A stretch of DNA of 64,000 nucleotides from Stylophora pistillata (Eukaryota), in assembly GCF_002571385.2 (NCBI RefSeq), contig NW_019217872.1:68280-132279 (forward strand), written 5' to 3'. Position 1 is the stretch's first letter, and each line of letters begins with the position of its first letter. Shown one piece after another: positions 23,101-46,200 of the stretch. Made by a program: the position numbers and the translations under genes. Under the pieces are notes generated by a model. It ran no database searches. It had not been told where the DNA came from and saw only the letters and a list, made by a program, of their open reading frames with translations.

Positions 23101-26100
23101 ATATATATGGGTTATCAACCAAGCGTGAGGTTTAAAGATGGCTGGATATTGGCCGAGTTCTTTTTTTGTTTTTGCATTTTTATGGACTGAGACGAAGTCG
23201 AGGTCCATAAAAATGCGAAAAAAGAACGAGGCTAATATCCAACCATCTTGACCGAACAAGCTTGGTCAATAGAGGATTTATTAAATCGCAAAAAGATTCC
23301 GCTTTACTGAATAAGAACTAGGAATAACTTGTTTACTTTTTAATTGTGTTTGTAGCACAACAAACTCACGAGAGTCGTTTCTGTTTTCTATTGACTATCT
23401 TCTGCCGTTTTTTGCGTTTCCATCGTCGAAATTGTCCAAGAATTACGAACGTAGTTCTAATTCTATTTTTTTTTTCATGCGCGGAATTAATGCGAGCAAT
23501 TCCGAGCGGGCAAGATGGGCCCAACCAGAACACAGTAATCACTTTATTTTGCCCACGGGCGCTGCGAGCGATGTAATAAACCTCATTATTTTTTTTTGTT
23601 TAGGTATTCACCGACTTCAGTCTGTCCTCCTCAAAACTGCGCTTATATTTGGTGCCAAGCTATATACTGGTGTCACATTCGATGATGTCATCGAACCAAA
23701 CTCAGTGGAGGATGGGTGGAGGTGCAAAGTGTCCCCCGTGTCCCACCCTGTTAGTGAGTATGAATTTGACGTCCTCATTGGCGCCGATGGCAAGAAGAAC
23801 GTCATTCCTGGTTTCCAACAAATTGAAATGAGAGGTAGGTGAAGAATAAGTTCATTTTGATATTCTTTTCCATTAATTATCTAAATAACTGAATCCAAAT
23901 ATTCAATTTAGAATGGGTTTCAATTAGGGATCATTCATCCTCAAAGAACGCCATACTGCGCAAAAAGTGGCTCGAGTTCGGCTGCTTAACAAATAGTAAA
24001 CACCATAGCGTAGACTTATGGAGGCAAGCGGGAGGTTTGCTAAGCACCCAAGTAGCTAGAGTCGCTCTCTTCCGAAACATTTGCTTTCTTGAAAATATTT
24101 GCTCATGTCAGCAGCGTACACCCATGGGCAAATAGTAGACTATGAATTGACCAATCAGAGCGCGCGCTTTACGTAATAGCTGTTATAATCAATATTTTAT
24201 TGATTGAAAACCGGTCAGCATCAATTGTACACAAAAAGCGCAAGTTGAGCAAATTGTTGGACCTCCGACTTATTTATTCCTGATCCCAGTTAAAGAAATC
24301 GAACGTTACTTTTTTGAACTGACAGACGATTCTTTGTGATATAATTGATATCTGCAAAAAGGCAAGAGCTCCATAGGATATTTTTCCATGAAAGAAAAAG
24401 GAACTTGAACTGGTAACGCTCGATATATAATTGTGAATCTTACCGTTTTTTTATGTTACATTACACAGGCACGCTCGCCATCGGTATAACAGCGAACTTT
24501 GTGAATCATTACACGGAAGAAGAAGCTAACGTGGAGGAGATTAGCGGCATCGCGTATCAGTTCAATCCGCAGTTTTTTGATGAACTGTTTAAACAGAAGG
24601 GAATAAAGCTGGAGAATATTGTTTATTACAAAGATGAAACACATTATTTTGTCATGACTGCTGGCAAAGCAAGCTTACTTAAAAGAGGAGCATTAAAAGA
24701 GGTAAATGTATAGAATTGATTCATGCTGTTTTCTCCTGGTCAGTCTGTTTGTATTTCAGCCAGCATACACCCTAACTACTGGCCACACTGCTTCCGTAGG
24801 GAGATGGAGATGGAGTTGTTCTTGATATTGTGGCCAAAAAGAAAATTACTTCTTAAGCAATATCACAGGGTTTGTATCGACGAACTTCTTTCCGAGCTTA
24901 GCTATTCAACTTTCTCGAAGTTGCGTATCAACCAACCCCTAACCCCGTCCTTGGGCAGGAAACTGTAGCGGGGAAGATACTCTTTGCAATCCTTGCTTCT
25001 GTAGAAAAAATTAATTTACACCACTTAAATCGTAATGCACCTACAAAGGACCAAGCGATGATAGAGATATGAAGATGATGCCAATTTTCATTGGTTTTTA
25101 TCGATTCTGCAGGATTTTGGTCCTCCAACAAACCTTCTGGCACCAAGCAACATCGATCCCTCCAAGTTGCTAGAGTATGTAAAAGATGTGGTCAAATACG
25201 CCACAAAAGGAACCCTGAGGAACTTGGAGCTGAAAATTGTCAAAAATAATCAACCAGATATTGCTGCATTTGACTTTACTTCAATCAAAAAAGCTGAACA
25301 CGCTGCCAGGATCATTGAACGACAAGGAAGCAAGTTGCTTGTGGGCTTAGTAGGCGACAGCTTATTAGAGGTCAGTAACCAAACTCTTCTTACCGTTTCC
25401 TCTACATCCTCAATTTTTTTAGGAGAAAATAATTTTATTACGTAAAGGCAAAAAAGGTTGAAATTAATTCTAATACTGAAATATGCGTTTCATTTAGAGA
25501 TTAGTTTCACCAGTAAAGACATTCTGTATTTGAGTTGTAGTTCAATGTAACGTCTTAACTGCTGGCGGTAAATTTATTTTTATCTCACCCGGACTTTATA
25601 AAACGGCGAAATTTGAAATTATAAATCTGATCTAATTCAGTTAATAGGGTTGATCTGGAGGAGTCGCGGAGGGACAGGAAATTTAAAATCCTGCTTCTGT
25701 GTAGGCGTTGCGAATTGCGGGTAGGAATGGCGGAAAAAGAATAGAAAAAAAATGAAGCAAAATAATAATAAATAAAAAGGAAAATAATGCTGATTGGGAA
25801 AGAGCTGTAACTGTTACCAACTGCTATTACGCATAATCGAGGAGTTCTGCCTTGTGAAGAGGTTTTCAGTTTTTATGCCTGATCATGCCTGTTTTATATG
25901 TATTAAATAAACTACATATGATGCACGATCCTCGCAGTAGATAGCGCTATCTAAGCAATAGCGAAAATCAGACCTGAAAAAAATCAGGCCTGTACGGGAT
26001 TCGAACCACTGACCTCTGCGATACTAGTGCAGCGCTCTACCAATTGAGCTAACAAGCCAACTGGGAGCAGGCCGTTAAGTTGATTCGCAATAAACCCGTG

Positions 26101-29100
26101 AAAGTGATAAATGAGATACAATGAAATATATGAAGTTCATTTATTTTGTACTGCGGTATTAGATACATATGGTGCACGATCCTCGCAGTATTTTTTTCAG
26201 GTCTGATTTTCGCTATTGCTTAGATAGCGCTATCTACTGCGAGGATCGTGCATCATATGTATCTAATACCGCAGTACAAAATACATGAACTTCATATATT
26301 TCATTGTATCTTATTAAATAAACTGTGCGCAGCTGTGTAAATTTTTTGATCCTTCTTCCTTAGCCTTTTTGGCCCACTGGATCTGGCTGCGCCCGCGGTG
26401 TTTTGAGCGCGCTAGATGCGGCATGGATGATTCGTTCATTTGCACAGGACAAACCGCCACTGCAGATACTCAGTGAGCGCGAGAACATCTACCGATTACT
26501 TTCAGGGACCAGCTCGGAGAATCTCCACAAAGATCACGCGAAGTATACAATAAACCCGGCCACCCGTTATTTGCACATTACACAGAAACGAATTCGAGAA
26601 GTGTACCATTTGTTTGACACTGATGATCCAGTGAACGCCGATTTCAGTGTCGGAAGCCCTCAGATTACCGTATCAAACAAAGGTAAAGTTAGAGCTGTTG
26701 TCAGTCATTGTTATTCATGTTCGTTCATGCTCTCGTCAACACAAGGTGGTATCTTTGGCTTAGGTCGGAGACAAGCCATGGGTACTCTATTGGGCTGTGA
26801 ATTTAAGCTATTACTGTTGAACTATCCTATCAGTTTGATTAAATTCTAAGTCCTTATAGTATCAGTCCAAAGGAGAAAAAAACGCCTCCTCCTAAACCAG
26901 TCTATGCAAGCTTAAGAGTATTAACTACATTTCTTCAAAGGTCATCTACTTACGCGTCTTTGTTTTTGTTTTTTAGCTTCTCGTAGAAGAAGAATCAGTA
27001 CTGGTGCGAAGTATACTTCATCTAAAGGTCGGGCGCGAAACCGGGCAGGTACCAACTTAGATATTGCTACAACAAGAATGAGATCGACTTCGGGATCCAG
27101 TGTGGAAAACTTAGTCTCGCACAAGCCCCTGTCATCCACAGAATCAGTACCACTCGACAGCCGAGTTCGCGCTAATACGTTTGGCAGTGACGATGAAGTG
27201 TTCAAACCAAAAACAAGGCGTGTGAGGATAAACGATTTACCAAACCCTTCAACTGGACGTAGTAGAAGCTCCACTGTGGGAAGTTCAGGCGATGAACTCA
27301 AAGACACAAGGAAAAAATCGGCGAGAAAGCGTTCTATGACGAAGGACAATTCGGAAAATCAGAGAGAGAACACCCGTCGTAGAAGAGGTTTCTTTGGATT
27401 TGGAAAGAGCAGACCTAGAAGGAAAAGCGTAGGAGATTCGGATTATCAGTCTGATAAAGACAAAAAATTGCAGAAGATGAAACATGGAGAAGAGCAAGAA
27501 AGAATAGAGGGTACATTGAAAAGTGTTCGACCGAGAGAGGAAGAGAAGGCAGGATTTGTGAGGGACGATTCCTTGAAAAGTCGCCCTGCGGGATCATTCT
27601 CGAGAGAACAATACACGAGAAGGTCTGCACAAGACATAATTCGAGAAATGGAAGCTAGATCCAAAGGAGACACTGCTCCAAATGAAAATGTAAAGAATGA
27701 AAAGATTGCGGGCAAAAGATTTGACTCAAAAGGAGAAGAACTTCGCTTAAACGGTGAACTTCAGGGTGGAGGAGAGAAAGCTAGAAGGAATAAAAATGAC
27801 AACAAGGAAATGGAGGAAAAGGCAAAGTTCGAGAAAGAGGATGAGAAAAAGAAGCACAAGGAGGAAGAAAAGAGGAAAAAAGAAGAAGAACGAAAGAAAA
27901 GGGATGAGAAAAGAAAACACGAAGTAGACAAGAGGAGAAAAGAAGAAGACGAAAGGAAGAAGAAAGAGGACGAGACAAAGAAACGAGAACAAGAGAAGAA
28001 TCTACACAACAAAAAGCAGCAAACTACTCCTCAAAACAAGAAATCCATGAAGAAAAGTTTACTGGATGAGATAGCGGCGTAAGTATTTAGTCTTAACGTG
28101 TAAAGGAAGAAATTAAGATAAGCGAATGGAAAACATCTGCGCACAAACTAAAACTGATCTTGTTCCAATGCTAAATCACCAAACTTTTAGACTTTGTGGA
28201 TTTCAAGTCCCAGTTGTTGTTGTTGTTGTTGTTGTTTTATTTTAGCCGCTGTTAATTGTGATGCTCTGATATTTTGACAGGTTGTCTCCCTCAGCCAAAC
28301 GTGCCATGCCAGTCCTGTCCAAACTGAGCCCTGAAAACGACAAAGAAAACGACAAGGCGCGCCAACATAGTGTGATGTCAGTAGTGAGGGATGCCGCTAT
28401 GTTAGTCATGGCAACGCCGCTGCTGGTTGACGGAATGATACCCAAAATAGGAATGGATCGTAAAGGATCGTGGGTAAGGTGTTAATTTTTTGATTTATGA
28501 CAATTGACGTAGAGGTGCTTCTTTGCAAATATTCTCTCGCTTGGATTGTTGTTGTTTTTTTCTAATTGTTTCAATTTCATGTTTCCTGTGGATGCCTACA
28601 CAGACCTCAAAGTTTCTTAAGCAAACGTTATCCTTCACCAATTTTTTTTTACATTTGTTTTAGCTTGGGAGAAGTAGCGGTCGTGTCCGCGATGTTGTTC
28701 ATCGGTACAACACATTGAATGACATGAAACCCACCTTAGACAAGATGAATGGAAATGCAACTCCCTTGAAAAGGCCGAAAGATAGGTAGGCTGATTTAAC
28801 ACACACGAATTCACCATGTAAATGAAAATTACAATTGTATCTATGTCTGTATCAATGAAAAATTGTAATTGCCAGTATCAAATCCTAGCTATAGCTAGAT
28901 CACAGAAAAAATATGTCGCGCAGGGCTGGTCTGTTAATTTAAGGATGTTTTAACACTCTGCACTTCGCCAAGGTGACCAGGTTTGCTCGCTAATTACTGT
29001 ACTTCAGCCCACATCCCGGTTTTTAATTCAATTTAAACGAAAAAATGACCTTGGTTAGTTTGTCCTGCATGCATGTTCGATGAATTTCGCTTAAGCGCTG

Positions 29101-32100
29101 GACGGTGGAGTGAGAAAAATATTTACAGGTTTGGTATGTACATGTACTAAACTGTTATGAGAATCCTGAGTTGTTTTGCTTATTTGGTCTTTTCGCGAAT
29201 AAATTATTCCCCTAAATGTTATTATTTCGTTTCTCTTAAGTGTTGATGGTTCTGAAACGAGGCCAAGAATAATAAACGTTGACAACGTGGATGATAGAGA
29301 AAATCAGAAGACGGAAGATGCAACTGATTCAAAACTAACACCTCCCTCAGACAAGAAGAAGACTTTGCAGATAAAGAAAGATGAAAAGCTTTTAATTTCC
29401 TCTCCTTCACTGGAAAGGCTTAAATTAAAGGTAAGCATTACAGTCAGCAATTTCACTTGCATTGATAATTGTTTCATATAAACATATCTGAAGTAAGAGC
29501 GCTAATCTGTTTGATCTTTTATCGAAATTTGTTACTTTGGTGTAATATGTTCCTTCCTTTTTTTTTTTTCTTATTTGCGAGTTCGCGTGCCTATTCGGTG
29601 ACGTAATCAAAATTTTCGCAAAATCGTGTGTCTGAGAACTTAGAGACCAAAAAATCCTTTAAATTTTAACATTTTTGTATACTCTAGTTACAGGACGAAC
29701 CATCTTCCGCTGATAAAATGTGTTCTACTTCGTTATCAAACGGACATGTAACAAAGGACTTTAATTCTCCGATTTGGCAAAAAACGGTTATTGCCCAAGT
29801 TGCGGAGCATCAAGACAAGAGTAAAGAAAGCAAGAATGTGCATACCACAGGGAGAAAGGGAGAGGTCAGAGAAATCGAGAAGATAAGGCTTTATGTTGGT
29901 TTCACTCAGTGATGTATAAATCTCATCATAGTGAACACACGCGAACGCGAAGAAAGTTTTATATTATAGGGCCAGATGCTACATTTGTTGGTACTTCTTG
30001 CCACTCATTAGTGGTAGGTACGGGTCCATGCGGCTTCCCCCCCCCCCCCCCTCCCCACCGACGTAGCACAACTGTTTCACGTAAGATGCGCGGATATTTA
30101 CAGTTGTGGCCCCATTTTGAAATTCTCGGCCAAGCCCCCAGATAGCGGTTATATGTCACCAAAAAGCTAATCATCCTCACACCTAAGATAACCTAGCAAA
30201 GTGGAAAGATTGGTTTTGTTGATTTTTGTCAAAAAAAAAATGAGTCCTTGGAGATATTTTCGGACAGAGTTTGTCACTATTTTCTCCTTTTTTTTTTGTA
30301 TTTTTTGTAGGCAGGAGAGAAGCAGCCTGTTCGTACAAAACTCTCACAGCAAAAACGGCGTTCGTCCGTGTTGCCGTCTGAAGTGATGGAGGAAAAACTG
30401 GTGAATTTACTGAACAGTACAACAGCTGAGAAAGCTAGGCAGTCCATCAAATACATGATAAGTCTCTTCAGGTACGAAATTATTAAATCTTTTGCTGTAC
30501 TTGCGGCGGGAAGATAGGGTGTAGTGTCAGAATGAAGGTTACAATTCACGACAATTTACTTGTATGACAGCTACTTGACGTGAGCTTCAATAATCGTAAC
30601 GGTGGCCAGTTTACCATTTCAACTTTGTTGATTTATTCAAATTATTTCGTTAACCCCATCGACGCAGCCCCAAACAGTTTCTTTAGAAACTATCAGCCTT
30701 TATTTACTTGTATGACAGTTTCTCATCCGGGATATGAAAACATTTGAACCTTAAGCGAATTTTCAAACACAGCGCTATTCAGATAACGATACTTTACTCG
30801 TGCTTGTTGTTGTAGAGAGGTTAATATTTTGTGACGGTTTAATAAAGCCGTCGTGGAAATGACTTTCCTTACAGAGTCGTAAGGAATAGAGTTGAGGATG
30901 ATTATAAACTTTGAATGGGTATATTTTGTATTTGAGGCCTCGACGTGATTTTTTGGGTCTAACCTTATTGCTTACCCATCTTTCTTTCTTTTTCTTTTTT
31001 TCTCGAGTTCCTCAGAGTAAAATACATTAAAAAGAACCTAGGTCCAAAACAATCTCCGTCATAGCAAATGTACATCACCATGGCCAGTCCCGCCGTTCTA
31101 TATTACAAGGATCAGGAAAGAGCTGTCCCCTAGGATTTTAGTTTAATAATAATAATTTTATACATCCCACCTATGTTTTTCACGATGTATTTTCCTAGAT
31201 TGAGCTATTTCATAATTGCTGTATACATTTCTTCAGGCAAATTCAGAAAAACCCGACCGATGAAAAATACTACAGGATTTTCAAAGGGAGAGCGAGATTT
31301 AAAAAACACGTGTGGTCCATGAGGAACGCCAAGCTGTTCATGACATCAAGTGGTTGGACAGAGGTATCACTTCAACTTCACTTCGACTTTAAAAATCAGT
31401 AACAGTTTAGGTGGTTGTGTCCTATGATTACTGCCCAGAGCTCTTTACCAAGAGATTTGGCTTTTCAACCGGCTAACTTCTAACTAATTTGTCCATGTTT
31501 TTGGCCTATTGATAGATATCAGCAGGTGAAGAAGGGGCTGAGACAACCTGAGACAGGCCAATTTTTTTAGGGGAGGAAGGGGATCTGAGGGTTGAGGTGA
31601 CTTAAGGTGTAAAACCTCATTCTCGTGAACTGTTTCATACTGCGCATGTCCACTCATCCAAAGACCAGGGTTTTATATTTAAATCACATTTCTTTTCTTC
31701 TTTCAGATTGGCAGTTTCATTATATTTCCGTTATCAAAGCAAACCGAGGGACCCATGATACTGCTGAACAAGTACCTTAGGTATATACCACAAGCCTAGT
31801 TTTTCCCTTCCTCTTTTTCAGTGCTTGGCTACTCAGTTATTTGATTTTTATTTTTGTTACTATTAACTGATGCACCAGTCTCTTTCATTGAGGGAAGATT
31901 TTCGTTTTAGGACCTTTTTTTCCAAGAGATGTTCATGAATTTTGACGTCTCTAACTAGCTGATTTCGCGTAGTGCATGTGGTTGTCCTTAGACAACTTGT
32001 TGAGAGTGTGGAAGATGAAAAAGATGTCTGAGCCTAAGAATTCCTTATTATCAGGAGCAAATAAACGCGAAAAGGACCGCTTAGTAATAGTATTAGTAAT

Positions 32101-35100
32101 AGTAATCAAAGTTTAATGTCTTTACGTGGCGCATGGTTACCCATATTGCCCGAGCCAGAGGCTCATGTATGAAACGCAAGACAACAACCCACCCATCCCA
32201 CCCCAGGAGAGGACATCCATCGCACAGTAATCTCGTGCGTGGGAAATTAACGTCTCCTATCCCTCACCCTGCAGGAGACGGGACCTCCATTTATTTGCCC
32301 CTATCCAATAAGACTAGAATATCTAAGCCATTTCTTGATGTTATAGAAAGGCAGAATATTCTTCTCAATTATTTTAAGACCTTGAGTGTTGGTCCGGCCG
32401 GGGTTCGAACCCTCGACCTCCCGCACATCAGTCCAGCGCCCTATCCATTGAGCTAACCGGGAGGCGGTTAGCTAAATTTTTTCACCATAAAAAAATTGCA
32501 CCTGAAAGCTAGCAATAAGAAATGCGAGCTGCTTTATTTAGGCAACTGGTGTGATATGTTACAAAGAGCTGTATCTTAAGCCTTATTCCGAGACTTCATC
32601 AATTTAAAATTATCTGTTTGTTTGTATGTTAGTATAACAGAGGAGAAAATTAAAGAAAAGAGCAGTGTTCCCCTAAAGAAAGATGCTCCAAACCTACGTA
32701 GGGCGAACTCCTCAGATTTGGCAGAGCGAATACTGGAACTGAAAGAAGCTTTATCTTCATCTAAAACCAATTTGAGCACGAGGACAAAATCTGGTGGCAC
32801 CAATAAGAGTGGAGATTTAAAACTCTTGCAGAGAACACTATCACTGGATGAGGTAAACATTCTAAGAGTGAAAACTGGTGTGTCTAGGACTTCACTGAAG
32901 GAAGATTCAACTGATAGGAAAAGAGAATTGTCACGGAAACTGCGAAGTCGTTTGGACCAAAGTAACACGATCAAGGCAAACAAATTACGCCGCTCTGTGA
33001 GTGAAAACGCTCTTCGGGAATCAAGTGAAATTTGCGATAGCTTTGAGCCAACCTTATCACGATGCAGTAACGGAGATGAATCATCACAACAACTGCAAAT
33101 CCATTCAGACCAGGTGGGTGAAAACAAACCAAGTAATCTTCGTCGTTCTTTAAGCGAAAATACTCTTCTGGAATCGTGTGAAACTTACAATAACTCTGAG
33201 CAAACTTCATCGAGATTTACTGACAGCGATGAATTGTCACAAAAACTGCATAATCATTCGGACCAAGCGGATGAAAACAAATCAAGCAATCTTCATCGGT
33301 CTGTTAGTGAAAACACACTTCAAAAGTTACCCGAAACTAGCCATTCGGACAAAGCGGATGAAAAGAAACCAAGAAATCTCCGTCGTTCTGTGAGTGAAAA
33401 CACACTTCTAGAGTCAACTGAAACTAGCGATAGCCGCGACCCTATTTTCTCGCCATTTACGAGGCGATTCTCCAAAAGGTACGTCCAAGAACAAGAGGTT
33501 TCGTGCGATCTACTTATGGAGAATCCAATGAACTCGAATATTTCCACTGTTGGCATCACTTCAGATGAAGAGGATTTCCCCACAAGTAGTGCAGTAAACT
33601 CGCATTCGGGGCGGTTAGAGGTTCGCTCGCCACAAAAGGCCGTTCTGGATGAAGCAGACCAACTGTCCTCCGTTTTGGGAAATCTTATTGATACCTTAGG
33701 GAGCTCTACAGACAGCGAGAAAGAAACAGGCTCCGCGAAAGAGACAGAGAACAATTCTAAGAAGAAAGGAAAGGCCAAAGACGAGAACAATTCTAAGAAG
33801 AAAGGAAAGGCCAAAGACGAGAACAATTCTAAGAAGAAAGGAAAGGCCAAAGACGAGAACAAAGATGAGGAACTGGAAGCTTTATGCGAAACACTGGACA
33901 CATTAATCAATGACACAAGTAGTGACTCCTCCTCTGGGAATCACAACGAGAAGTCAAGAGAAAGGAAACCACGCAGTGAAGAAGAATGGCGTAAAACTGC
34001 TTTTAAACCTCCCCTGCCCCCAACCAAACGAAACAAGCAACAGCTGGGCAAAGGCAAAAGCATAGATACTGTTCAGAACGAATCTAACCGAAAATCGATT
34101 ACTAATGGCCGATCAGGGCGTGGACAAATTTCACAAGTGAAGAGCGTCGATATTGCGGCGCCAACGAGTAACACGAGACGAAAGGAAAGGACTTCTGGAA
34201 GTGCGGACTCGAAGGTGACGCAGAAATACACACAACAACGACAAGGAAGCTCAACACGAGCTCATTCTAAGCGGAAAAACGAAACGAGTAACAGTTTTGC
34301 TTCTCATGTGACTCATCGAAAAGAAAGCTTGTCAACTAAACGGAACTCTGATGTAATATCGTCCCAAAGAACGTCGAAACGACTTGCTATAAAAAGTAAA
34401 AGTGTTGATTTGGACAGATCAAGAACACGGTCTCCAGTGGCAAAGACGAAGAGTGTAGATCATCGAAGAAACGGAATTAAAGGCAGTAGGTCCGGACGTT
34501 TTGCAAGCAGCAAAGACGGCGACAAACCGCCACGGCAGAGCACAACCGAACAGAGTCAAATGAAGTCAAGGAATCAGGCCAAGAAAGGAAACCGTCGCGC
34601 ATCCTTACCTGAGCATTCAAAGAGCAAGACAAAAGAGGAAAATGATGAAGAGGCGTCTCAGCTTCTACATGAAAATACTACAAGAAAAGACGCTCCATCG
34701 CTTGAGGATGACTTCATTTTATGTGTGCCCATCGACGACAACAATGTCAACGATGCTGAAAGCCCGGCTTTACCCGATAAAGCATCAGGCGATTGCTTCT
34801 CAAACGATCAAGACATAACTAATTCTGGAAGAAGCAGTGAAAAGGAGCCTGGGAAGGAGAATTTTGAAGGTTACCCTAGCTGCGAATCATTCATCTTTGA
34901 AAACCGCGTTTCTGATGAAACAGATTTTTTTTCTCAAGCAAAAAGTGAGGAAATTATTGAGGTATCTAATCCTGTTCAGACCTATTCCAATGAAAATGAA
35001 GTTTTTACAAACGATGACGTCCATGGTGAGAATGGGGACGCGAACAATTTCGGAAATGACCAGAAAGAAAAGCAAACAATTGCAAGAAACGGGGAACTTC

Positions 35101-37969: not shown

Positions 37970-38338
37970 GTATTTATTTACGAATATGTATGTATTTACG
38001 AATATTTATACAGGGTAGCCCTGTTTAGCAGATAGCTAGTTTAAATGGGGCCCTGTGAACACCCATCCATCCCACCCCAGGGGAGGACATCCACCACACA
38101 GCAATCTGATGCGTGGGAAATTAACGTCTCCTACCCCTAACCCTGCAGGAGACAGGGCCTAGGGTATATTGGTCCTTATCCGAGAAGACTAGATTTTCTA
38201 TCCATCTCTTGATATTATAGAAAGGTAGGAAATTCTCTTCAGTTATTTTTAGACCATGAGTATTGGTCGGGCCAGAACTCGAACCCTCGACCTCCTGCAC
38301 AACACACTCCGGCGCTCTAACCAAGTGAGCTAACCGGG
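37970..38338 (-). mobile_element. tRNA-derived SINE
   Basis: Same head and core as 32083-32468, with a different 3' tail. Confidence 0.8.
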
Positions 38339-41300
38339 GGACGGGAAGGGAGGAGGAGGTGGGGCGCTGATAGTCTCTCTCAGAAAACTAATTTCTCAGA
38401 ATCGATTTTACCTTTACCAGCAAGGGCTCAACAAAACCGCCAAGTACCCTCTATTTTATAACTTACACCAACAGATTATTTTCACGTAATGAATTTCCAC
38501 TAGTTTTCAAGTCTCCACTGCATTGAATAACCTTCCCCTTCCCTCCGTGCCCCCAAATTTTGCCACCCGTCCCAGCTTCGAGCTGATCAGCCACCCCAGT
38601 CCCTCTTGCGTGACTTCGTTGACGCATGGTCCCAAACAAACAGTACCCGTCCGGTATGCTTCTATTTATAGCATAAACTCGGTGACTCAAAACGGCATGT
38701 CTCTTTGTATTGTGTGTCTGTGAGCAGCCTCGAAGTTCCACGCACGCAGATTCGCCCAAAAATACCCACTTTTGGTGAGTAGCTTTTAAAATATACTTCT
38801 TCAATAATTCAAGGCGGCTTATTAATATTTGAACATGGGACTGATTCTGTTCCATACTAGATTCGCTTGCGAACCGAGCAGGACTTTATTTCCGCTGAAA
38901 CCGGAGAATGAGATCGTGTCTTTGTTTAGTGTTTACCGAATGATTCTCGTTTGAAGCTTCTCCATTTCTAAAAACTGCTTCTTGTTCTTTGTCTTTTCTG
39001 ATATCATAACATCAGCCAGTTTACCAATTGAGTTCTTCAGTTGGTTCTAGTATGGCGCTGTTTCGTGTTTTCGGATAACAGGCCAGCATCACGGAATCAC
39101 ATTCCGCTACTACGAAGAAATTAAGCGAGTTCTTAATTTGGACACAGTTCTTTAACCTTTGTCATCTTTTCCCATTACAAGGATAACATTTTCTCTAGGT
39201 GAAACCTTTAGATAATGAAACAAAGTGTGTCTTAAATATTTTGCGCCACGATGAGTATCTATTTGTCTTCAGGCGAATCCATGCGTATTTTTTTTTTTTT
39301 TTTTCAACATTCCACATAAACCAGCTTACAGTAAGACCAAGGCCACTCTCCGCGTGTCGCCGTAGTGGATGTAAAATAACAGCGCAATTTTGTCGCAACT
39401 GTAATTTAGCAGGCAATTACTGATTCATTTGAAGCAGAGTATTTTGAAGCGTGATTTGAATTTCGTAATTAATCGCGCTTTAGGGCTGGTATCGAAGATA
39501 AACGACATATCGCTCCGCTGGACTTTGTGGCGTTCAGTTGCACAATAACAGCAGATTGTTATTTGCGTAATGGACAATATAATTGTTTTGGGATGTTACG
39601 TTGTGTCGCAATGTTCGCTAGCTTTGTTTATATTAAGACAGCTTTGGTTTAACACATCTTGGCTGCCATTTTGTTGTTTTTATCGATTCGCTTACACGGT
39701 GTGAATTCAAGATGAGTCAGCTTTTCTGTTTCATCAGCCATGCGTCAGTCATGTGGACACTATATTCTGATTGCACGTCAAACGCTAATCATGAATAAAG
39801 AGTTGCCCTCGACGACAGACATGGTTTCCGGTGAATTAGTCACGGTCTTAATTAGCGATAAAATTTAAGGGTAGTCTGTTGCTCAGAGAAATCCTTACTC
39901 TTTCGATCTAGTTGCCAATCCTATCTTATTTTAACAGAAAAATTAGAGGTGAGACCTGAAGCACCAGAAAATACAGCTAGGTTTTCATCACATTTCTNNN
40001 NNNNNTCTATGCTCTGTGTCACGCATCAAATGTATTACTACATGGAGTTAGGAGGCGTGTCATTCCTTGAAGGTAGGTTTCTGTTCTTTAATCGCTTTTT
40101 TTCAACACGCAGCACTTTTAGTTTCCATAAACGGTGTCTGGAACTACCTATTGTTAGCTTGATTTACATAAAAAAAGTTTTAGAATATACCAGATTGATT
40201 TGATCAGGAGGTTGTGTTGTTCGTTCCATACTGATTATGTTGAAATACCTCAAATGTGGAATGAACACAAAAATCGAGATCTCGTTTTAAAACCGGACAG
40301 GTTGGAAATTGGGACGCGAGAACAAACTTCCATTAAGGTTGGTAAAGCGATTTCACAAATGGATTTTTTTAATTTTTCGAATACCTCAGATTCAGATGGT
40401 ATTTAGTATATCGAAGGTTAGTTAACAAAACCTTGGCAGAAGATGTTTTGAGTTCAGTCTCCAGGCTGAAGGCACGGAATCACATTCCTGAAGTAAGGGA
40501 TCGAGGAGCTCAAAACAATGCTCTGGAATCAAGAACTCTTCAATTGTAGTTATAGTTGTCATTTAAAAGTTGTCTTCTCGCCTTGGGTTTGTGACTAGCG
40601 CATGTTGTTTTATTATCATGTAAAATATGCAAAATATTGATGTGCCTGAATGCTAATTCCACGTGGATGTGAATAATCATGTCTGTGTTTAGTTTACACA
40701 ATAATGTCGTTGTTGTGCAATCACGTTTTATTTTCTCACCGGATTTTAAGACCGGATTGCTCAAGTAAAGCTGTAATTGGACAAATTCCTTGGTTTCTGA
40801 AAGCGACAGATTTACCTGTGAAATTATCAGCACGTGAGAGATAAATGACGCGGCTGAATTTTGGGTTCGAACGTGCTTTTGTGAATGCATGAATTAAACA
40901 AAGGCGTGTTTCCACTTGAAGCATATCTTTTAATAACTTCTACGTCTTCTACGGAGGACGTACAAGTGTTGTGTTAGTCGATCTTAAAAGCTGGAATTTC
41001 CAAAGTTAACTTATATTTTGATTTTAATCGAAGCAACGAGAATACACTTTATGCCCCCTCTCGAGTTTCTTTTGACCCGGAATTTTATGGGATTATTTGG
41101 ATTAGCCGGAATAAAAAATGTCATAGATTTCATTTTCGAAAAGAAAGGAAAAATCTCGAGTCGGAGCTTACGTGTTGCGATCTGAAGAATTTACATAGCG
41201 GAATTGGTAATTATTTTAATTTAAACACAGCTGGAAGTTGAGAAATACGTCATGCCAAGTTCCGTGTTCGTTGTTATGTTTCTCAGTGACGGTCTCAATT

Positions 41301-43223: not shown

Positions 43224-46200
43224 ATGTACTCACTACACGACATCACAAGTGTTTGTCCAAAATTGGAGCCGCTGGCTTCTGATGAACCTTGCTGTCGCGA
43301 AGAAGAAAGTTTAAGATTGATGAATCATGCTAATGAACAGATGGACACACTTGTACGCGTTTCTGCTGAAAACAAAAACAGTTTAATGATGGAATCGAGC
43401 CAGTTGGATGTGTATGGAAAGACACCTTGTGTGGGAATGAGTGGCTACGAGGGAATGACGACCAACAACGCGATCGCTTACGAAGTGAAATCGATGGCAA
43501 CCGTCGTGAAAACTCTGCACGGTAATGCCTACCATGCGAATGCTTCCGGTCAAATGTCGTATGCAACGGTCAAGATTCCTTACGAAATCAAATCGATTGG
43601 AACTATCGAGAAACCGATTCCTTTTGGAAGCAAGCCAAATGGAATAGAGAAATCGCGGCCAGATGAAGCTTACCATTCAAACACTTGTGGGCAAGTATCT
43701 AACGGGGCGATAAAGATTCCCTACGAAATCAAATCGATTGGCACTATCGAGAAGCCACTTCTGTCAGGGGAGTCGTATCCCACGAGTGTCTCCGAGGAGT
43801 TGCCCCATGGAAAGATTTTGAACGTGTATACGGTTCCAGTTTACGAAAACGGTGGTAGCCATGAAGTTTACTATTATCCCATGGAAAACGATACTCAAGA
43901 AGGAGGAGCAATTTCACAGACCTCCCAAGCTGGCACTCCTGTTAGTTATGTTTATGACAGTGGCTATGACCCCTGCGAAAGAACCCAGAGCAAACCAGAA
44001 GCGACACCTTCGTCCGCAGGTCTGACCGCCTGCCAGTCGAGTGCTTACGGGACAATACCACTCAATCAATTGGGTCCTGATAGATTGTCACAACCGTACG
44101 ATATGCTTAGTCAAGAAAAGGCGCTAGGTCTCCAAAAGAATACTTTCAGGGGTACCCACAGGGCCTTGACATCGTATGAGATCGGAGCTCAGCCAAGACC
44201 CAGTTGTAATTGTTCTTGCCATCATTCTGATCCAGGTTCCTCTCATTTTCCCGCCTTTGGTTTGAGAAATGAACGTCCTTCTGTTATTATGGTTCCTGCA
44301 ACCTGGAATGGTGATGTCATGGACGATGCTGCTGGCAAGGTGAGCTGTGCCCTAATTGGGTCTTTATGTTTTTCTTTTAAATGTTTTGTTTTGCCGCCGT
44401 TATCCCAGTAAACTTTGAAATATCCTTACTAAATGCAATGTACTGTTGTGATCTAAGTTTTTTTTTCCATCTAATAGATTTGATTTTTGTTGTTGCCTTT
44501 TCTTAGTGGTAACAACAACAATAACAGAAACTGTAATCACAACAATAACAGCGATAACAATACAAACACAACATCAAGAACAACAACAACAACAACAACA
44601 ATAATAATAATAGTAATAATAATATTATTAGCAATGATAATGATGATAACTAGAAATGATACTATTCATGGCAAAAAATTGACCGGAAATCATTTTTCAA
44701 ACAGTTTGAATCCGCCTCCCATGGGATCCGACAAGATCTGCAGCATAAAGAATATCACGAATTGGTAAGTTTTACAGTTGCATAGTCGATAAAAATAATA
44801 CGCCATTTTACAGTTGCCAAGCATTTGATTTGGAGTGAGGTTGAAGGTGACCTTGTTGTGATAAAAACCGCTATCTAGTTGGCATGATAACAAAGTAATT
44901 CACATTTAGAAAGCAGCAAAGGTTGTATCATAATAAGGTCACCCTTAGCCTCACTCCTGTTCAAAGGCTTGGCAACCAAGCAGACAACTGTAAAATGGAC
45001 TATTGCAGGCTTAGCCTGCAGAGCAGGCGTAATTTGGGCGAGCAAGTGCTCGGTATTTTCTTAGCAAAATATGGCCGCCATCTTTGATTTTAATGGCAGC
45101 GGAAGGCTGGGGAGACAAAAACATTTGTATTAAGGGGGTGAGTGAAAAAATGGAGGGGGCTGGGGGGGTCTTCTCGCCCCTTCCCGCCCCCCTTCTCCTA
45201 CCCTCGATTCTGACACCAAATTAACCATGGCTGCTTAAATAAACGATCGCGCGCTTCTTAATGTTAACTGGCCCTATTAAGACGCTTGCACTGCAGACTA
45301 TTGAGGCGTGAGTAGTCCAGTGGTCAATGCGCTGGACTCTGGGTCGGTTGGCCCGGGTTCAAGTCCTGGCTGGGGCATGATGTTGTGTCCTTAAGCAAGA
45401 CGCTTCACTCACATTGCTTCTTCTTCTCGGATAAGACGTAAAGCCGTAGGTCCCGTTTCCTGCAGGGTCAGGGGCAGGAGACGTAATTTTACCGTGCACG
45501 AGATTACTGTGTAATGGATATCCTCCCCGGGGTGGGATGGGTAGGAAGGTGAGATCGCTACATGGACTGAAGCGGCTGCCAGAGGCGCCTGATAAAAATG
45601 CTGACGTCCGGTCTCAACCTTACGATACTGTTAAGAGCGACTGAATATATCCATGTAGAAGTCGGCGCTATATAAATGTAAAAATGTAAATGTATGAAAA
45701 TGTATTGCAGGCTTTAGTAAACTTGGTTTGTCGATGGTTTTTACAGGAGGATTCTGACTCATCCGATGATGGTGATGAAGATGGTAAGCATGAAAAGTAT
45801 TTCCGCAAGAACATCGACGGAACTACGGCGAGATTTAAGCTGTCCAAAGAAGACTGGAAGAGGATTCCAATCAACACATTCCCCAGCGGTGGCAGATTGT
45901 TGAGTGGCGACTGGACACGGATCTTCCTCAGCAAAGTCAAAGAAAGCAACCCATGGTGTAGCTTGCGCTTTAAGAATAATCACGTGAGATCAGAAAACTC
46001 TCGCAAAATCCACTCAGCGGTATTCTTCAGAGGAGGCGCGGAATGTAAGCGACCAGAATGCAACGTGAAGGTGCGATTCGTCATCCGGAAAGAAAGAGGA
46101 AAACACGTGGAGGTGACGTATGTTGGAAACGTTTGTCACAACAGTCAGCCAGGCGGTGGTGACGTCATAACTGACAAGAGAAAGAAGCGTTGTGTTCGCC

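Follow-up and report, generated by a model that had tools for sequence, protein, structure and literature searches.

The 64,000-nucleotide stretch of Stylophora pistillata DNA analysed here (part of contig NW_019217872.1; hereafter the window, in whose numbering all positions are given) carries at 25901..26324 an insertion that combines a tRNA-like fold, an inverted arm and a short target site duplication (TSD), which raises the question of what kind of element this is and which enzymes copy it. A preliminary description had proposed a retrozyme-like element dependent on Penelope (PLE) retroelements. The insertion is one copy of an abundant coral repeat of ~250 nt. On balance, we favour the view that this is a non-coding, tRNA-containing 250-nt repeat, copied by a borrowed PLE reverse transcriptase/endonuclease from a likely circular template and possibly cut out by host tRNA-processing enzymes, not by a ribozyme.

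Layout of the insertion

With unit numbering starting at the tRNA base G1, the insertion resolves into the following features:

25901..25913, no strand: left copy of the TSD, 13 bp, by direct comparison with the right copy
25914..26190, minus strand: long arm, 277 nt, unit 120-251 followed by 1-145; its 3' end at 25914 is start site 1
25945..25963, minus strand: predicted 7-bp hairpin, unit 96-114; pairing kept, sequence differing among subfamilies
25977..25983, minus strand: T7 run 3 nt past the tRNA, Pol III terminator-like, within the predicted hairpin 25968-25991
25986..26058, minus strand: tRNA-Thr-derived segment; box A 26040-26051, box B 25997-26007, acceptor stem paired 7/7, T-stem 3/5, 9-nt anticodon loop
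26059..26102, minus strand: leader, unit 208-251; predicted rod-like pairing with the D- and T-arms of the tRNA
26124..26190, minus strand: conserved 3' module; ACUGCG/CGCAGU stem around start site 1, followed by an AU-rich hairpin that precedes start site 2 (26114) by ~11 nt
26191..26311, plus strand: inverted arm, 121 nt, unit 76-196; its 3' end at 26311 is start site 2
26312..26324, no strand: right copy of the TSD, identical to 25901-25913 at 13/13 positions

Most of the layout given in the preliminary description holds. The 251-nt monomer with terminal redundancy is seen as a terminal repeat of 26-27 nt at a spacing of 251 with one mismatch; the inverted arm, the 13-bp TSD and the ACTGCG/CGCAGT stem are present, and a simple-repeat tail is absent from the copy, as claimed. 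The internal tRNA-Thr-like part scores 48.9 bits, its acceptor stem being fully paired and two of its five T-stem pairs mismatched. A 16-bp palindrome at 25938-25953 is perfect in this copy but owes this to a private A>G at unit position 108, which is A in 189 other unit alignments; the change is common to both arms. The conserved 3' module is likely the part recognised by the PLE enzyme. By eye, a hairpin ~12 nt before each start site fits both the repeat and the PLE of the window.

The copies carry a PLE-type insertion footprint

Across copies, 171 of 204 distinct 3' ends fall at unit 141-154 or 186-204, two sites ~51 nt apart, and in the same copy set the 5' ends are scattered, with a flat distribution along the unit. 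The permutation suggested earlier is thus borne out for the 5' ends but not for the 3' ends, which are fixed. Two-armed layouts account for 46 of the 106 complete insertions, all with outward-pointing arms (inward-pointing: 0 among 106). TSDs of 11-17 bp (mode 13, 76% AT) flank 28 of these 46, and a mismatched-flank control gave a duplication of at least 9 bp in 2 of 106. The two start sites are used by one arm each in 30/34 two-armed cases (p about 6e-6). In family G, from independently assembled coral-associated contigs, 58 of 74 ends lie at the same two sites, and in families G and K pooled, of the two-armed copies whose ends both lie at a site, 10 of 11 combine different sites. The two end sites also recur in RNA reads as loose ends with diverse flanks.

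Three further insertions in the window serve for comparison:

53698..53922, no strand: two-armed insertion of an older subfamily; arms end near sites 1 and 2, copy body ~53711-53909, decayed 13-bp duplication 53698-53710 / 53910-53922 (10/13)
11322..12034, no strand: 3' fragment of a PLE that carries a hammerhead, two-armed, 13-bp TSD; arms end at two different sites
54718..55027, no strand: another two-armed fragment from this PLE family, 13-bp TSD

The first of these had been described as a second subfamily at 53712-53905; it is an older two-armed copy, but contains only the last dozen bases of the tRNA. The hammerhead PLE insertions at 11335 and 54731 do carry the 13-bp TSDs described for them, and the hammerhead PLE control from the same genome has TSDs of 13-17 bp in 6 of 7 cases, with 77% AT. 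The end, TSD and layout statistics of the repeat match those of this control: TSD length, target AT content and arm layout agree, and LINE-like tails and fixed 5' tRNA heads are absent. The insertion footprint of the repeat is of the PLE type, not of the LINE/SINE type. Since the copies sit in the genome as PLEs do, the repeat likely borrows a PLE enzyme, and the previously suggested PLE dependence is strongly supported.

The tRNA-derived segment is conserved in its acceptor stem

The repeat falls into seven subfamilies with units of 246-251 nt, two of them mainly from other coral-associated contigs; a second search of this genome for family G returned one copy only. In all seven subfamily consensuses the acceptor stem is paired 7/7; both sides have changed at pairs 6-67 and 7-66, and the anticodon stem shows one further two-sided change. 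Among ten real copies, 91% of cells are paired, and the covariation score, in which relatedness is uncontrolled, was reached by 5 of 500 shuffles. The acceptor differences between subfamilies could stem from separate tRNA captures, although the host tRNA-Thr genes retrieved, a possibly incomplete sample, do not have these stems. ARAGORN and Rfam call the repeat units as tRNA-Thr genes.

The T-stem is paired 5/5 in subfamilies D, G and K and 3/5 in A, B, C and F, which are the youngest and include the copy at 25901..26324. A broken T-stem should weaken recognition by RNase P/Z. The proposed RNase P/Z processing therefore has the compensatory acceptor changes in its favour and the broken T-stem of A, B, C and F against it; the repeat may rely on host enzymes that cut tRNA for a step that a ribozyme performs in related repeats. 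A role for Pol III is similarly divided. Conservation extends to boxes A and B, but all seven consensuses have a T6-7 run 3 nt past the tRNA, at which most Pol III would be expected to stop before either start site; judging from this run, most Pol III transcripts should end at about 80 nt. The predicted hairpin at 25968-25991 would compete for the 3' acceptor strand of the tRNA.

In each of the seven subfamilies the leader is predicted to pair with its own tRNA better than shuffled leaders do (1-8/150), and no better than foreign leaders. The duplex test for leader and tRNA is weak (4-71/300 shuffles in six families), the leader-tRNA helices contain one-sided changes only, and RNAalifold gives them no net covariation term. 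The covariation analysis proposed earlier speaks for the acceptor and anticodon pairs but not for the leader-tRNA helices. When the unit is folded from +1, its first and last bases are predicted to lie in adjacent stacked helices in A, B, C and F; the predicted folds of D and G, and of K, whose monomer was mis-built, are without these joined ends. Units are highly self-paired, with a fold z of -6.7 on the tRNA strand and -3.7 on the opposite strand.

The template is multimeric or circular

Copies cross the tRNA 5' end and the unit junction seamlessly, which argues for a multimeric or circular template and not for a linear tRNA-headed transcript. Reliably assembled arrays comprise 1 to ~3.7 units (up to ~3-4 units per arm). 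In young subfamilies long arrays often border N, and divergence is 4.6-7 times lower in internal than in terminal units, the two being equal in old subfamilies; arrays longer than ~4 units probably reflect gap-filling by the assembler. The homogeneity of long arrays and the periodicity of variants were considered as proof of rolling-circle copying and rejected on account of the low internal divergence and the N borders. As the long young arrays are probably gap-fill, they provide no evidence for many turns round a circle. Variants are common to units of one insertion ~3x as often as between insertions; some of those shared within arrays fall at CpG hot spots or stem from one later duplication.

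RNA reads from unstranded libraries contained no circle or cut ends for the repeat, and a true retrozyme control likewise gave none at its cut site, so the reads are uninformative on this point. They are mostly host transcripts, and among the rows listed no misread occurs at the A58-equivalent position. Logan contigs attest to the presence of the repeat only.

A mechanism that accommodates these results starts from the observed pattern of two 3' sites ~51 nt apart, scattered 5' ends, outward arms, AT-rich duplications of 11-17 bp and one arm per site. Very probably, a PLE protein acting as a dimer cuts the target with a stagger of ~13 bp and both DNA ends prime reverse transcription, each at one of the internal sites with 0-3 nt of pairing, after which the two cDNAs are joined. 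By a narrow preference we take the template to be a monomer circle, because 5' truncation would otherwise shorten arrays with each generation and because variants are shared preferentially within insertions. Should such a circle exist, we tentatively suggest that the cloverleaf marks the cut, made by RNase P at +1 or by an anticodon-loop nuclease, and that the leader pairs with the tRNA arms, juxtaposing the ends for ligation and masking the cloverleaf in the circle. The complete scheme, a ribozyme-free retrozyme in which host tRNA processing cuts a tandem transcript at every tRNA mimic, the tail splints the ends and a Penelope-type dimer copies the 250-nt circle from two sites onto both ends of one break, is unlikely to be correct in every part.

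The alternative that survives best, which we consider possible if less than probable, is mobilisation by a PLE of a linear, multimeric read-through RNA with neither circle nor cut, the tRNA being no more than a relic or a promoter for Pol III. Transcription across 2-4 units would be by host Pol II or by leaky Pol III, and tandems would be renewed by PLE template jumping or by insertion beside existing copies. The small size of reliable arrays, the T-stem decay in the youngest subfamilies and the RNA reads on the repeat, ~70% of which run on into unlike sequence, agree with this. So do the head-to-tail arrangements of autonomous PLEs and non-autonomous Chlamys elements, presented with no circle in the sections concerned (PMC8557442), and the use of uncut RNA by PLE protein in the in vitro work described (PMC11167929). 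A promoter, however, needs boxes A and B only, which leaves the compensatory acceptor and anticodon pairs unexplained, as it does the unit length held at 246-251 nt across families ~30% apart; unit junctions that are seamless at every position also count against it.

No known ribozyme is found in the repeat

Ribozymes were sought with Rfam, under gathering as well as E-value cut-offs, and by scanning for the hammerhead core. The hammerhead core is absent from the copy, as had been stated, with no match in either scan, and the idea of a hidden ribozyme found no support in the Rfam scans, which returned no ribozyme with the E limit set at 10 for subfamily A and at 5 for six loci belonging to other subfamilies. 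The type I hammerhead expected in each unit of a retrozyme was not found in the repeat. Motifs of HDV-like, twister and hairpin ribozymes gave a by-eye resemblance and no fit.

This genome also harbours a hammerhead retrozyme with a unit of 244 nt, of which 18 of 31 segments end at one position, 16 of those in TA repeats. Homology between the two was not supported, as their similarity lies within that of shuffles (12-51/200, sense strand). The repeat is retrozyme-like in its unit size and seamless tandems, but the local retrozyme targets TA repeats, and the PLE partner is therefore probably not the same for the two.

Were a self-cleaving ribozyme of an undescribed type present, for instance in the ACUGCG/CGCAGU stem and its conserved CGANGAUC loop, the repeat would be a strict retrozyme. 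This stem and a GANGA motif are conserved in seven of seven subfamilies and look by eye like hammerhead stem I plus half a core, and the unit size matches that of the local retrozyme. We nevertheless judge this improbable: Rfam detects no ribozyme, the GAAA half-core is absent in register, the similarity to the local retrozyme does not exceed shuffles, and the motif can also be read as a small hairpin ~12 nt before start site 1.

Origin of the unit and search for a partner PLE

An ordinary LINE-dependent tRNA SINE or a satellite, its tandem and inverted forms produced by later recombination or by the assembler, would account for a tRNA head with boxes A and B and for long young arrays that resemble gap-fill. 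It is very improbable and already contradicted: 5' ends do not pile up at the tRNA head (2/102 at position 1 in subfamily A, copies running through this position), the copies end at two fixed 3' sites with no poly(A), simple-repeat or LINE-like tail, the TSD is tied to the two-armed layout, and the same end pattern recurs in raw RNA reads, in other assemblies and in copies that are old and diverged. Hardly credible is the reading that an autonomous PLE driven by a tRNA promoter has the unit as its terminal repeat (pLTR), the copies being its truncated ends, since, although PLE insertions are mostly truncated 3' ends, another unit and not coding sequence lies upstream of each unit and only 6 of 465 flanks match PLE proteins, all unrelated neighbours or insertion into an old PLE.

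No PLE reading frame continues from the repeat among the 465 flanks, no Naiad-type frame was recognised among the 150 scored of 1590 candidates, and no 3' sequence is shared with eight C-terminal-endonuclease PLE families.

Comparison with known systems

In vitro, the Poseidon_Ac PLE uses two adjacent internal start sites and cleaves both strands of AT-rich DNA, hammerhead cleavage not being required in the assays described (PMC11167929), and a PLE tail is reported at one end only (PMC8557442). The two-site ends and the one arm per site of the repeat match these start sites, this cleavage and the one-end tail. More generally, the repeat has in common with endonuclease PLEs (PMC11167929; Naiad, Chlamys and Hydra, PMC8557442; Adineta Penelope, PMC3846280) two adjacent start sites, an optional one-end tail, an inverted 5'-truncated arm, partial tandems, AT-rich targets and a short TSD, as far as these accounts describe them. 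It differs from them in having an internal tRNA segment and a tail of ~51 nt, and neither reading frame nor hammerhead, the latter being likewise absent from Naiads as described (PMC8557442).

Non-autonomous Chlamys elements such as MRC1 are also non-coding, PLE-dependent and multicopy head-to-tail (PMC8557442). Their 3' sequence is shared with an autonomous family, whereas no such shared sequence was found for the repeat among the 70 of 90 GIY-YIG matches compared, and the passages on MRC1-type elements mention no tRNA segment. Animal non-LTR retrozymes (PMC7229834, bioRxiv 10.64898/2026.07.22.740005, PMC7761336) resemble the repeat in their ~250-nt, self-paired tandem units in corals, large TSDs and link to PLEs; they are described with a type I hammerhead per unit and demonstrated circles, whereas the repeat is without a hammerhead and its circles are putative. 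In schistosome Sm-alpha/Sj-alpha (PMC2770079, PMC6765202) a tRNA-derived Pol III promoter likewise lies within tandem SINE-like units and not at the end of the mobile unit. Sm-alpha is reported to be cut by a hammerhead; the repeat instead has none, and shows a T6-7 run past the tRNA and a measured PLE footprint. The TRIMp3 elements Cassandra, Helenus and Ajax are non-autonomous, carry a small-RNA-derived Pol III cassette inside the repeat and use a non-LINE enzyme; their dependence, as described, is on LTR retrotransposons (PBS, PPT, 4-5-bp TSD), in contrast to the PLE footprint found here (PMC10886601). For TRIMp3 the author notes conserved promoter boxes and doubts a functional RNA, whereas in the coral repeat stem pairing is also kept.

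The repeat is thus likely a non-autonomous element of the PLE/retrozyme type with a tRNA fold and no known ribozyme. No description of a tRNA-derived PLE passenger was found in the literature searched; supplementary consensus files and Repbase/Dfam may hold the repeat, and given its abundance it is probably already listed there under some label.

Implications

On the practical side, the finding bears on tRNA-Thr gene calls made by ARAGORN/Rfam on the units and on the long arrays of the assembly, which are probably artefacts. The many short copies record in nature how PLEs insert, a step still unsolved: a ~13-bp cut, priming of both ends and one arm per start site, a rule that the available in vitro PLE system could test. 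Should the processing step be true, the repeat would represent a ribozyme-free route to genomic circular RNAs. If PLE dependence is true, PLEs have tRNA-derived passengers of their own, as LINEs have in SINEs and LTR elements in TRIMp3.

A Penelope-like insertion footprint in a tRNA-bearing repeat

The window copy comprises two arms of a ~250-nt non-coding unit with an internal tRNA-Thr-like part, whose first base is position 1.

Features of the window copy
25901-25913 and 26312-26324: identical 13-bp sequences flanking the 398-bp insertion
25986-26058, minus strand: tRNA-like part, numbering origin of the 251-nt unit
Long arm: unit positions 120-251, then 1-145
Inverted arm: unit positions 76-196

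The preliminary description had reported a 13-bp target-site duplication and an inverted arm, and both are present. The two arms point outward, so that each outer end of the insertion is a 3' end of the tRNA strand. The perfect palindrome described earlier exists, but is a private change of this copy; since it occurs in both arms, the sequence suggests that they derive from a single source.

The repeat family as observed is real. Searching the ~398-Mb genome with the element gave at least 228 matches (40 of 1270 candidates scored), with 94-100% identity among the matches listed, and the sequencing runs containing the element are coral by label. A pattern scan of metagenome contigs (at least 120 stretches) supplied many copies of families G and K. 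Family G, common in other coral-associated contigs, was found once in this genome (L275, G000:C14:153708-153968); this copy may represent an old remnant, a transfer or foreign sequence within the assembly.

Unit lengths of the subfamilies and families
A: 251 nt
B: 247 nt
C: 249 nt
D: 250 nt
F: 246 nt
G (distant; many copies in metagenome contigs): 251 nt
K (many copies in metagenome contigs): 250 nt

A footprint of two start sites, two arms and a 13-bp duplication is established for the repeat. Of 204 distinct N-free 3' ends, 171 fall within unit positions 141-154 or 186-204 (start sites 1 and 2), and the 5' ends (n=191) scatter across the whole unit; fixed 5' tRNA heads, named beforehand as evidence against a Penelope link, are not seen in subfamily A, where 2 of 102 5' ends lie at position 1. 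Family G, from independent assemblies, has 58 of 74 ends at the two sites, and raw RNA reads exit the unit at 142, 146 and ~197 into diverse sequence. The 106 complete insertions include 46 two-armed outward-pointing, no two-armed inward-pointing, 57 one-armed and three more complex cases. Duplications of 11-17 bp flank 28 of the 46 two-armed insertions (mode 13, 76% AT) and duplications of at least 9 bp flank 5 of the 57 one-armed ones, against 2/106 with mismatched flanks. The hammerhead Penelope-like element (PLE) family at 11335 and 54731, used as a control, has 13-17 bp in 6/7 two-armed copies at 77% AT, which bears out the proposed Penelope-like duplication and target. Both ends coincide with a start site in 34 of 45 two-armed insertions, the other 11 having one end elsewhere; 30 of these 34 carry one arm per site (p ~6e-6), two use site 1 twice (both units of one satellite) and two use site 2 twice. 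In 42/45 both arms come from one subfamily. At the 3' junction, element and target share 1.1 nt versus 0.39 by chance (49 ends).

According to PMC11167929, PLEs use two adjacent internal start sites in vitro, their targets are AT-rich with both strands cut, and the protein is a predicted dimer; PMC8557442 and PMC3846280 describe insertions in which one arm is inverted and truncated and a single end bears a tail. The insertion features of the repeat match PLEs as described there.

Arrays and the length of the template

Young subfamilies reach 16 units per array in the assembly. We read these long arrays as assembly gap-fill, because internal units are far nearer the consensus than terminal ones (divergence 0.0026 versus 0.0119 in A, 0.0007 versus 0.0050 in B) and many arrays adjoin N. 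In the older subfamily C, internal and terminal units are equal (0.044, 0.047), and arms have ~3 units at most (3.7 at a single locus, which underwent a later duplication). The reliable array length is 1 to ~4 seamless units per arm, and the template exceeds one tRNA-headed transcript in length. Within one C insertion 0.24 of variants are shared, against 0.06 between insertions, both figures being inflated by CpG decay; leaving out the duplicated locus (six pairs) lowers the former to ~0.19 (hand count). A circular monomer and a uniform source array are both compatible with this sharing.

Beside an older 3.7-unit copy lies a 219-bp satellite of ~38 units (L259, G000:C8 ~733500-741700), each a complete small two-armed insertion of this family plus ~85 bp of flank. 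The satellite may have arisen by genuine amplification or by gap-fill. At L304 and L306 (~1350-1580) and L080:988-1444 the tRNA part by itself forms short tandem repeats, with units of 83 bp (10 nt of leader plus tRNA, 6-nt repeat at the joints) and 65 bp.

RNA folding and expression

The tRNA strand folds better than shuffled sequences (z = -6.7; opposite strand -3.7). Among the host tRNA genes retrieved, tRNA-Thr(CGT) is nearest, and none has the acceptor stems of the element. Comparison of the seven consensuses, and of ten real copies, shows a fully paired acceptor stem in every consensus, with two-sided changes at pairs 6-67 and 7-66 of that stem and at pair 28-42 of the anticodon stem. 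D, G and K keep an intact T-stem; in A, B, C and F two of its pairs are mismatched. All seven share an A-C mismatch that opens the anticodon loop to 9 nt, and a T6-7 run three bases 3' of the tRNA.

The lowest-energy predicted fold has no cloverleaf: the 44 nt preceding the tRNA (the leader) pair with its D- and T-arms, and the 3' strand of the acceptor stem forms pairs across the T run. The energy gained from the leader exceeds that of shuffled leaders in all seven (1-8/150 shuffles) and that of host tRNA-Thr gene leaders (0 to -5 kcal/mol). The leader-tRNA helices show one-sided changes only, the result of a duplex test was weak, and own leaders were not preferred over foreign ones in pairing. 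Two mutually exclusive folds are thus predicted, a cloverleaf with the better covariation and a rod with the better energy.

Three unstranded RNA runs place 8139-9267 of 12.9 million reads on the unit, ~70% of them continuing into unlike sequence and 110-148 spanning the 251-nt junction. Read starts and ends do not pile up at +1, +73 or the T run; since a true 244-nt hammerhead retrozyme of this genome (377-460 reads) is equally blank at its cut site, these runs do not decide on cut ends.

Partner enzymes and related elements

No 3' sequence common to the element and PLEs was found in 70 GIY-YIG loci (at least eight PLE families), and no PLE reading frame runs on from its 465 flanks. The hammerhead PLE family of the window, with further fragments at 15586-15729, 17875-18062 and 30578-30704, is one candidate partner; its duplications have the same length. 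Tails differ between PLE families of this genome (~95 nt and ~63 nt; L108-L128, window 11939-12021), and the ~51-nt tail of the tRNA element is unlike either; tail length may guide the search for the partner. A hammerhead-like core at 510-538 differs from that of the window PLE family.

The local type I hammerhead retrozyme (L104:319-1121, L393-L442) is probably served by a different enzyme, since it favours TA repeats: of its 31 segments, 18 have their end 14 nt past the predicted cut site, and 16 of these lie in TA repeats. One local PLE family also targets TA repeats.

Animal retrozymes are built alike, but the tRNA repeat lacks their hammerhead; the noted absence of a hammerhead was upheld, no known ribozyme being found in the element. 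Sm-alpha likewise combines a tRNA promoter with tandem units but carries a hammerhead, and TRIMp3 is a parallel case dependent on LTR elements. In open-access text, covered mostly as listings and passages, we found no description of a tRNA-bearing, ribozyme-free PLE passenger, nor is such an element described in passages from PMC5786205 and PMC2888827.

The window also holds a separate tRNA-headed family (1449-1660, 14079-14211, 32187-32467, 38061-38344, 45422-45546) whose tRNA is terminal, as in ordinary SINEs, and palindromic non-coding repeats of MITE-like appearance (6-308, 13336-13640, 23135-23249, 60846-60968).

A model of insertion

The main rival to a circular template is uncut linear read-through RNA, the tRNA being a promoter or relic. 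Pol III terminates at T runs, and the run following the tRNA argues that Pol III alone would seldom produce the template. We lean slightly towards a circle. Were it one, host tRNA processing might conceivably cut the RNA, the leader first splinting and then masking the cut, a step we propose tentatively. A SINE does not match the start sites, arms and duplications. Very probably, a PLE dimer primes both ends of a single staggered cut, one per start site. In its working the repeat resembles the non-autonomous PLEs of MRC1 type (PMC8557442).
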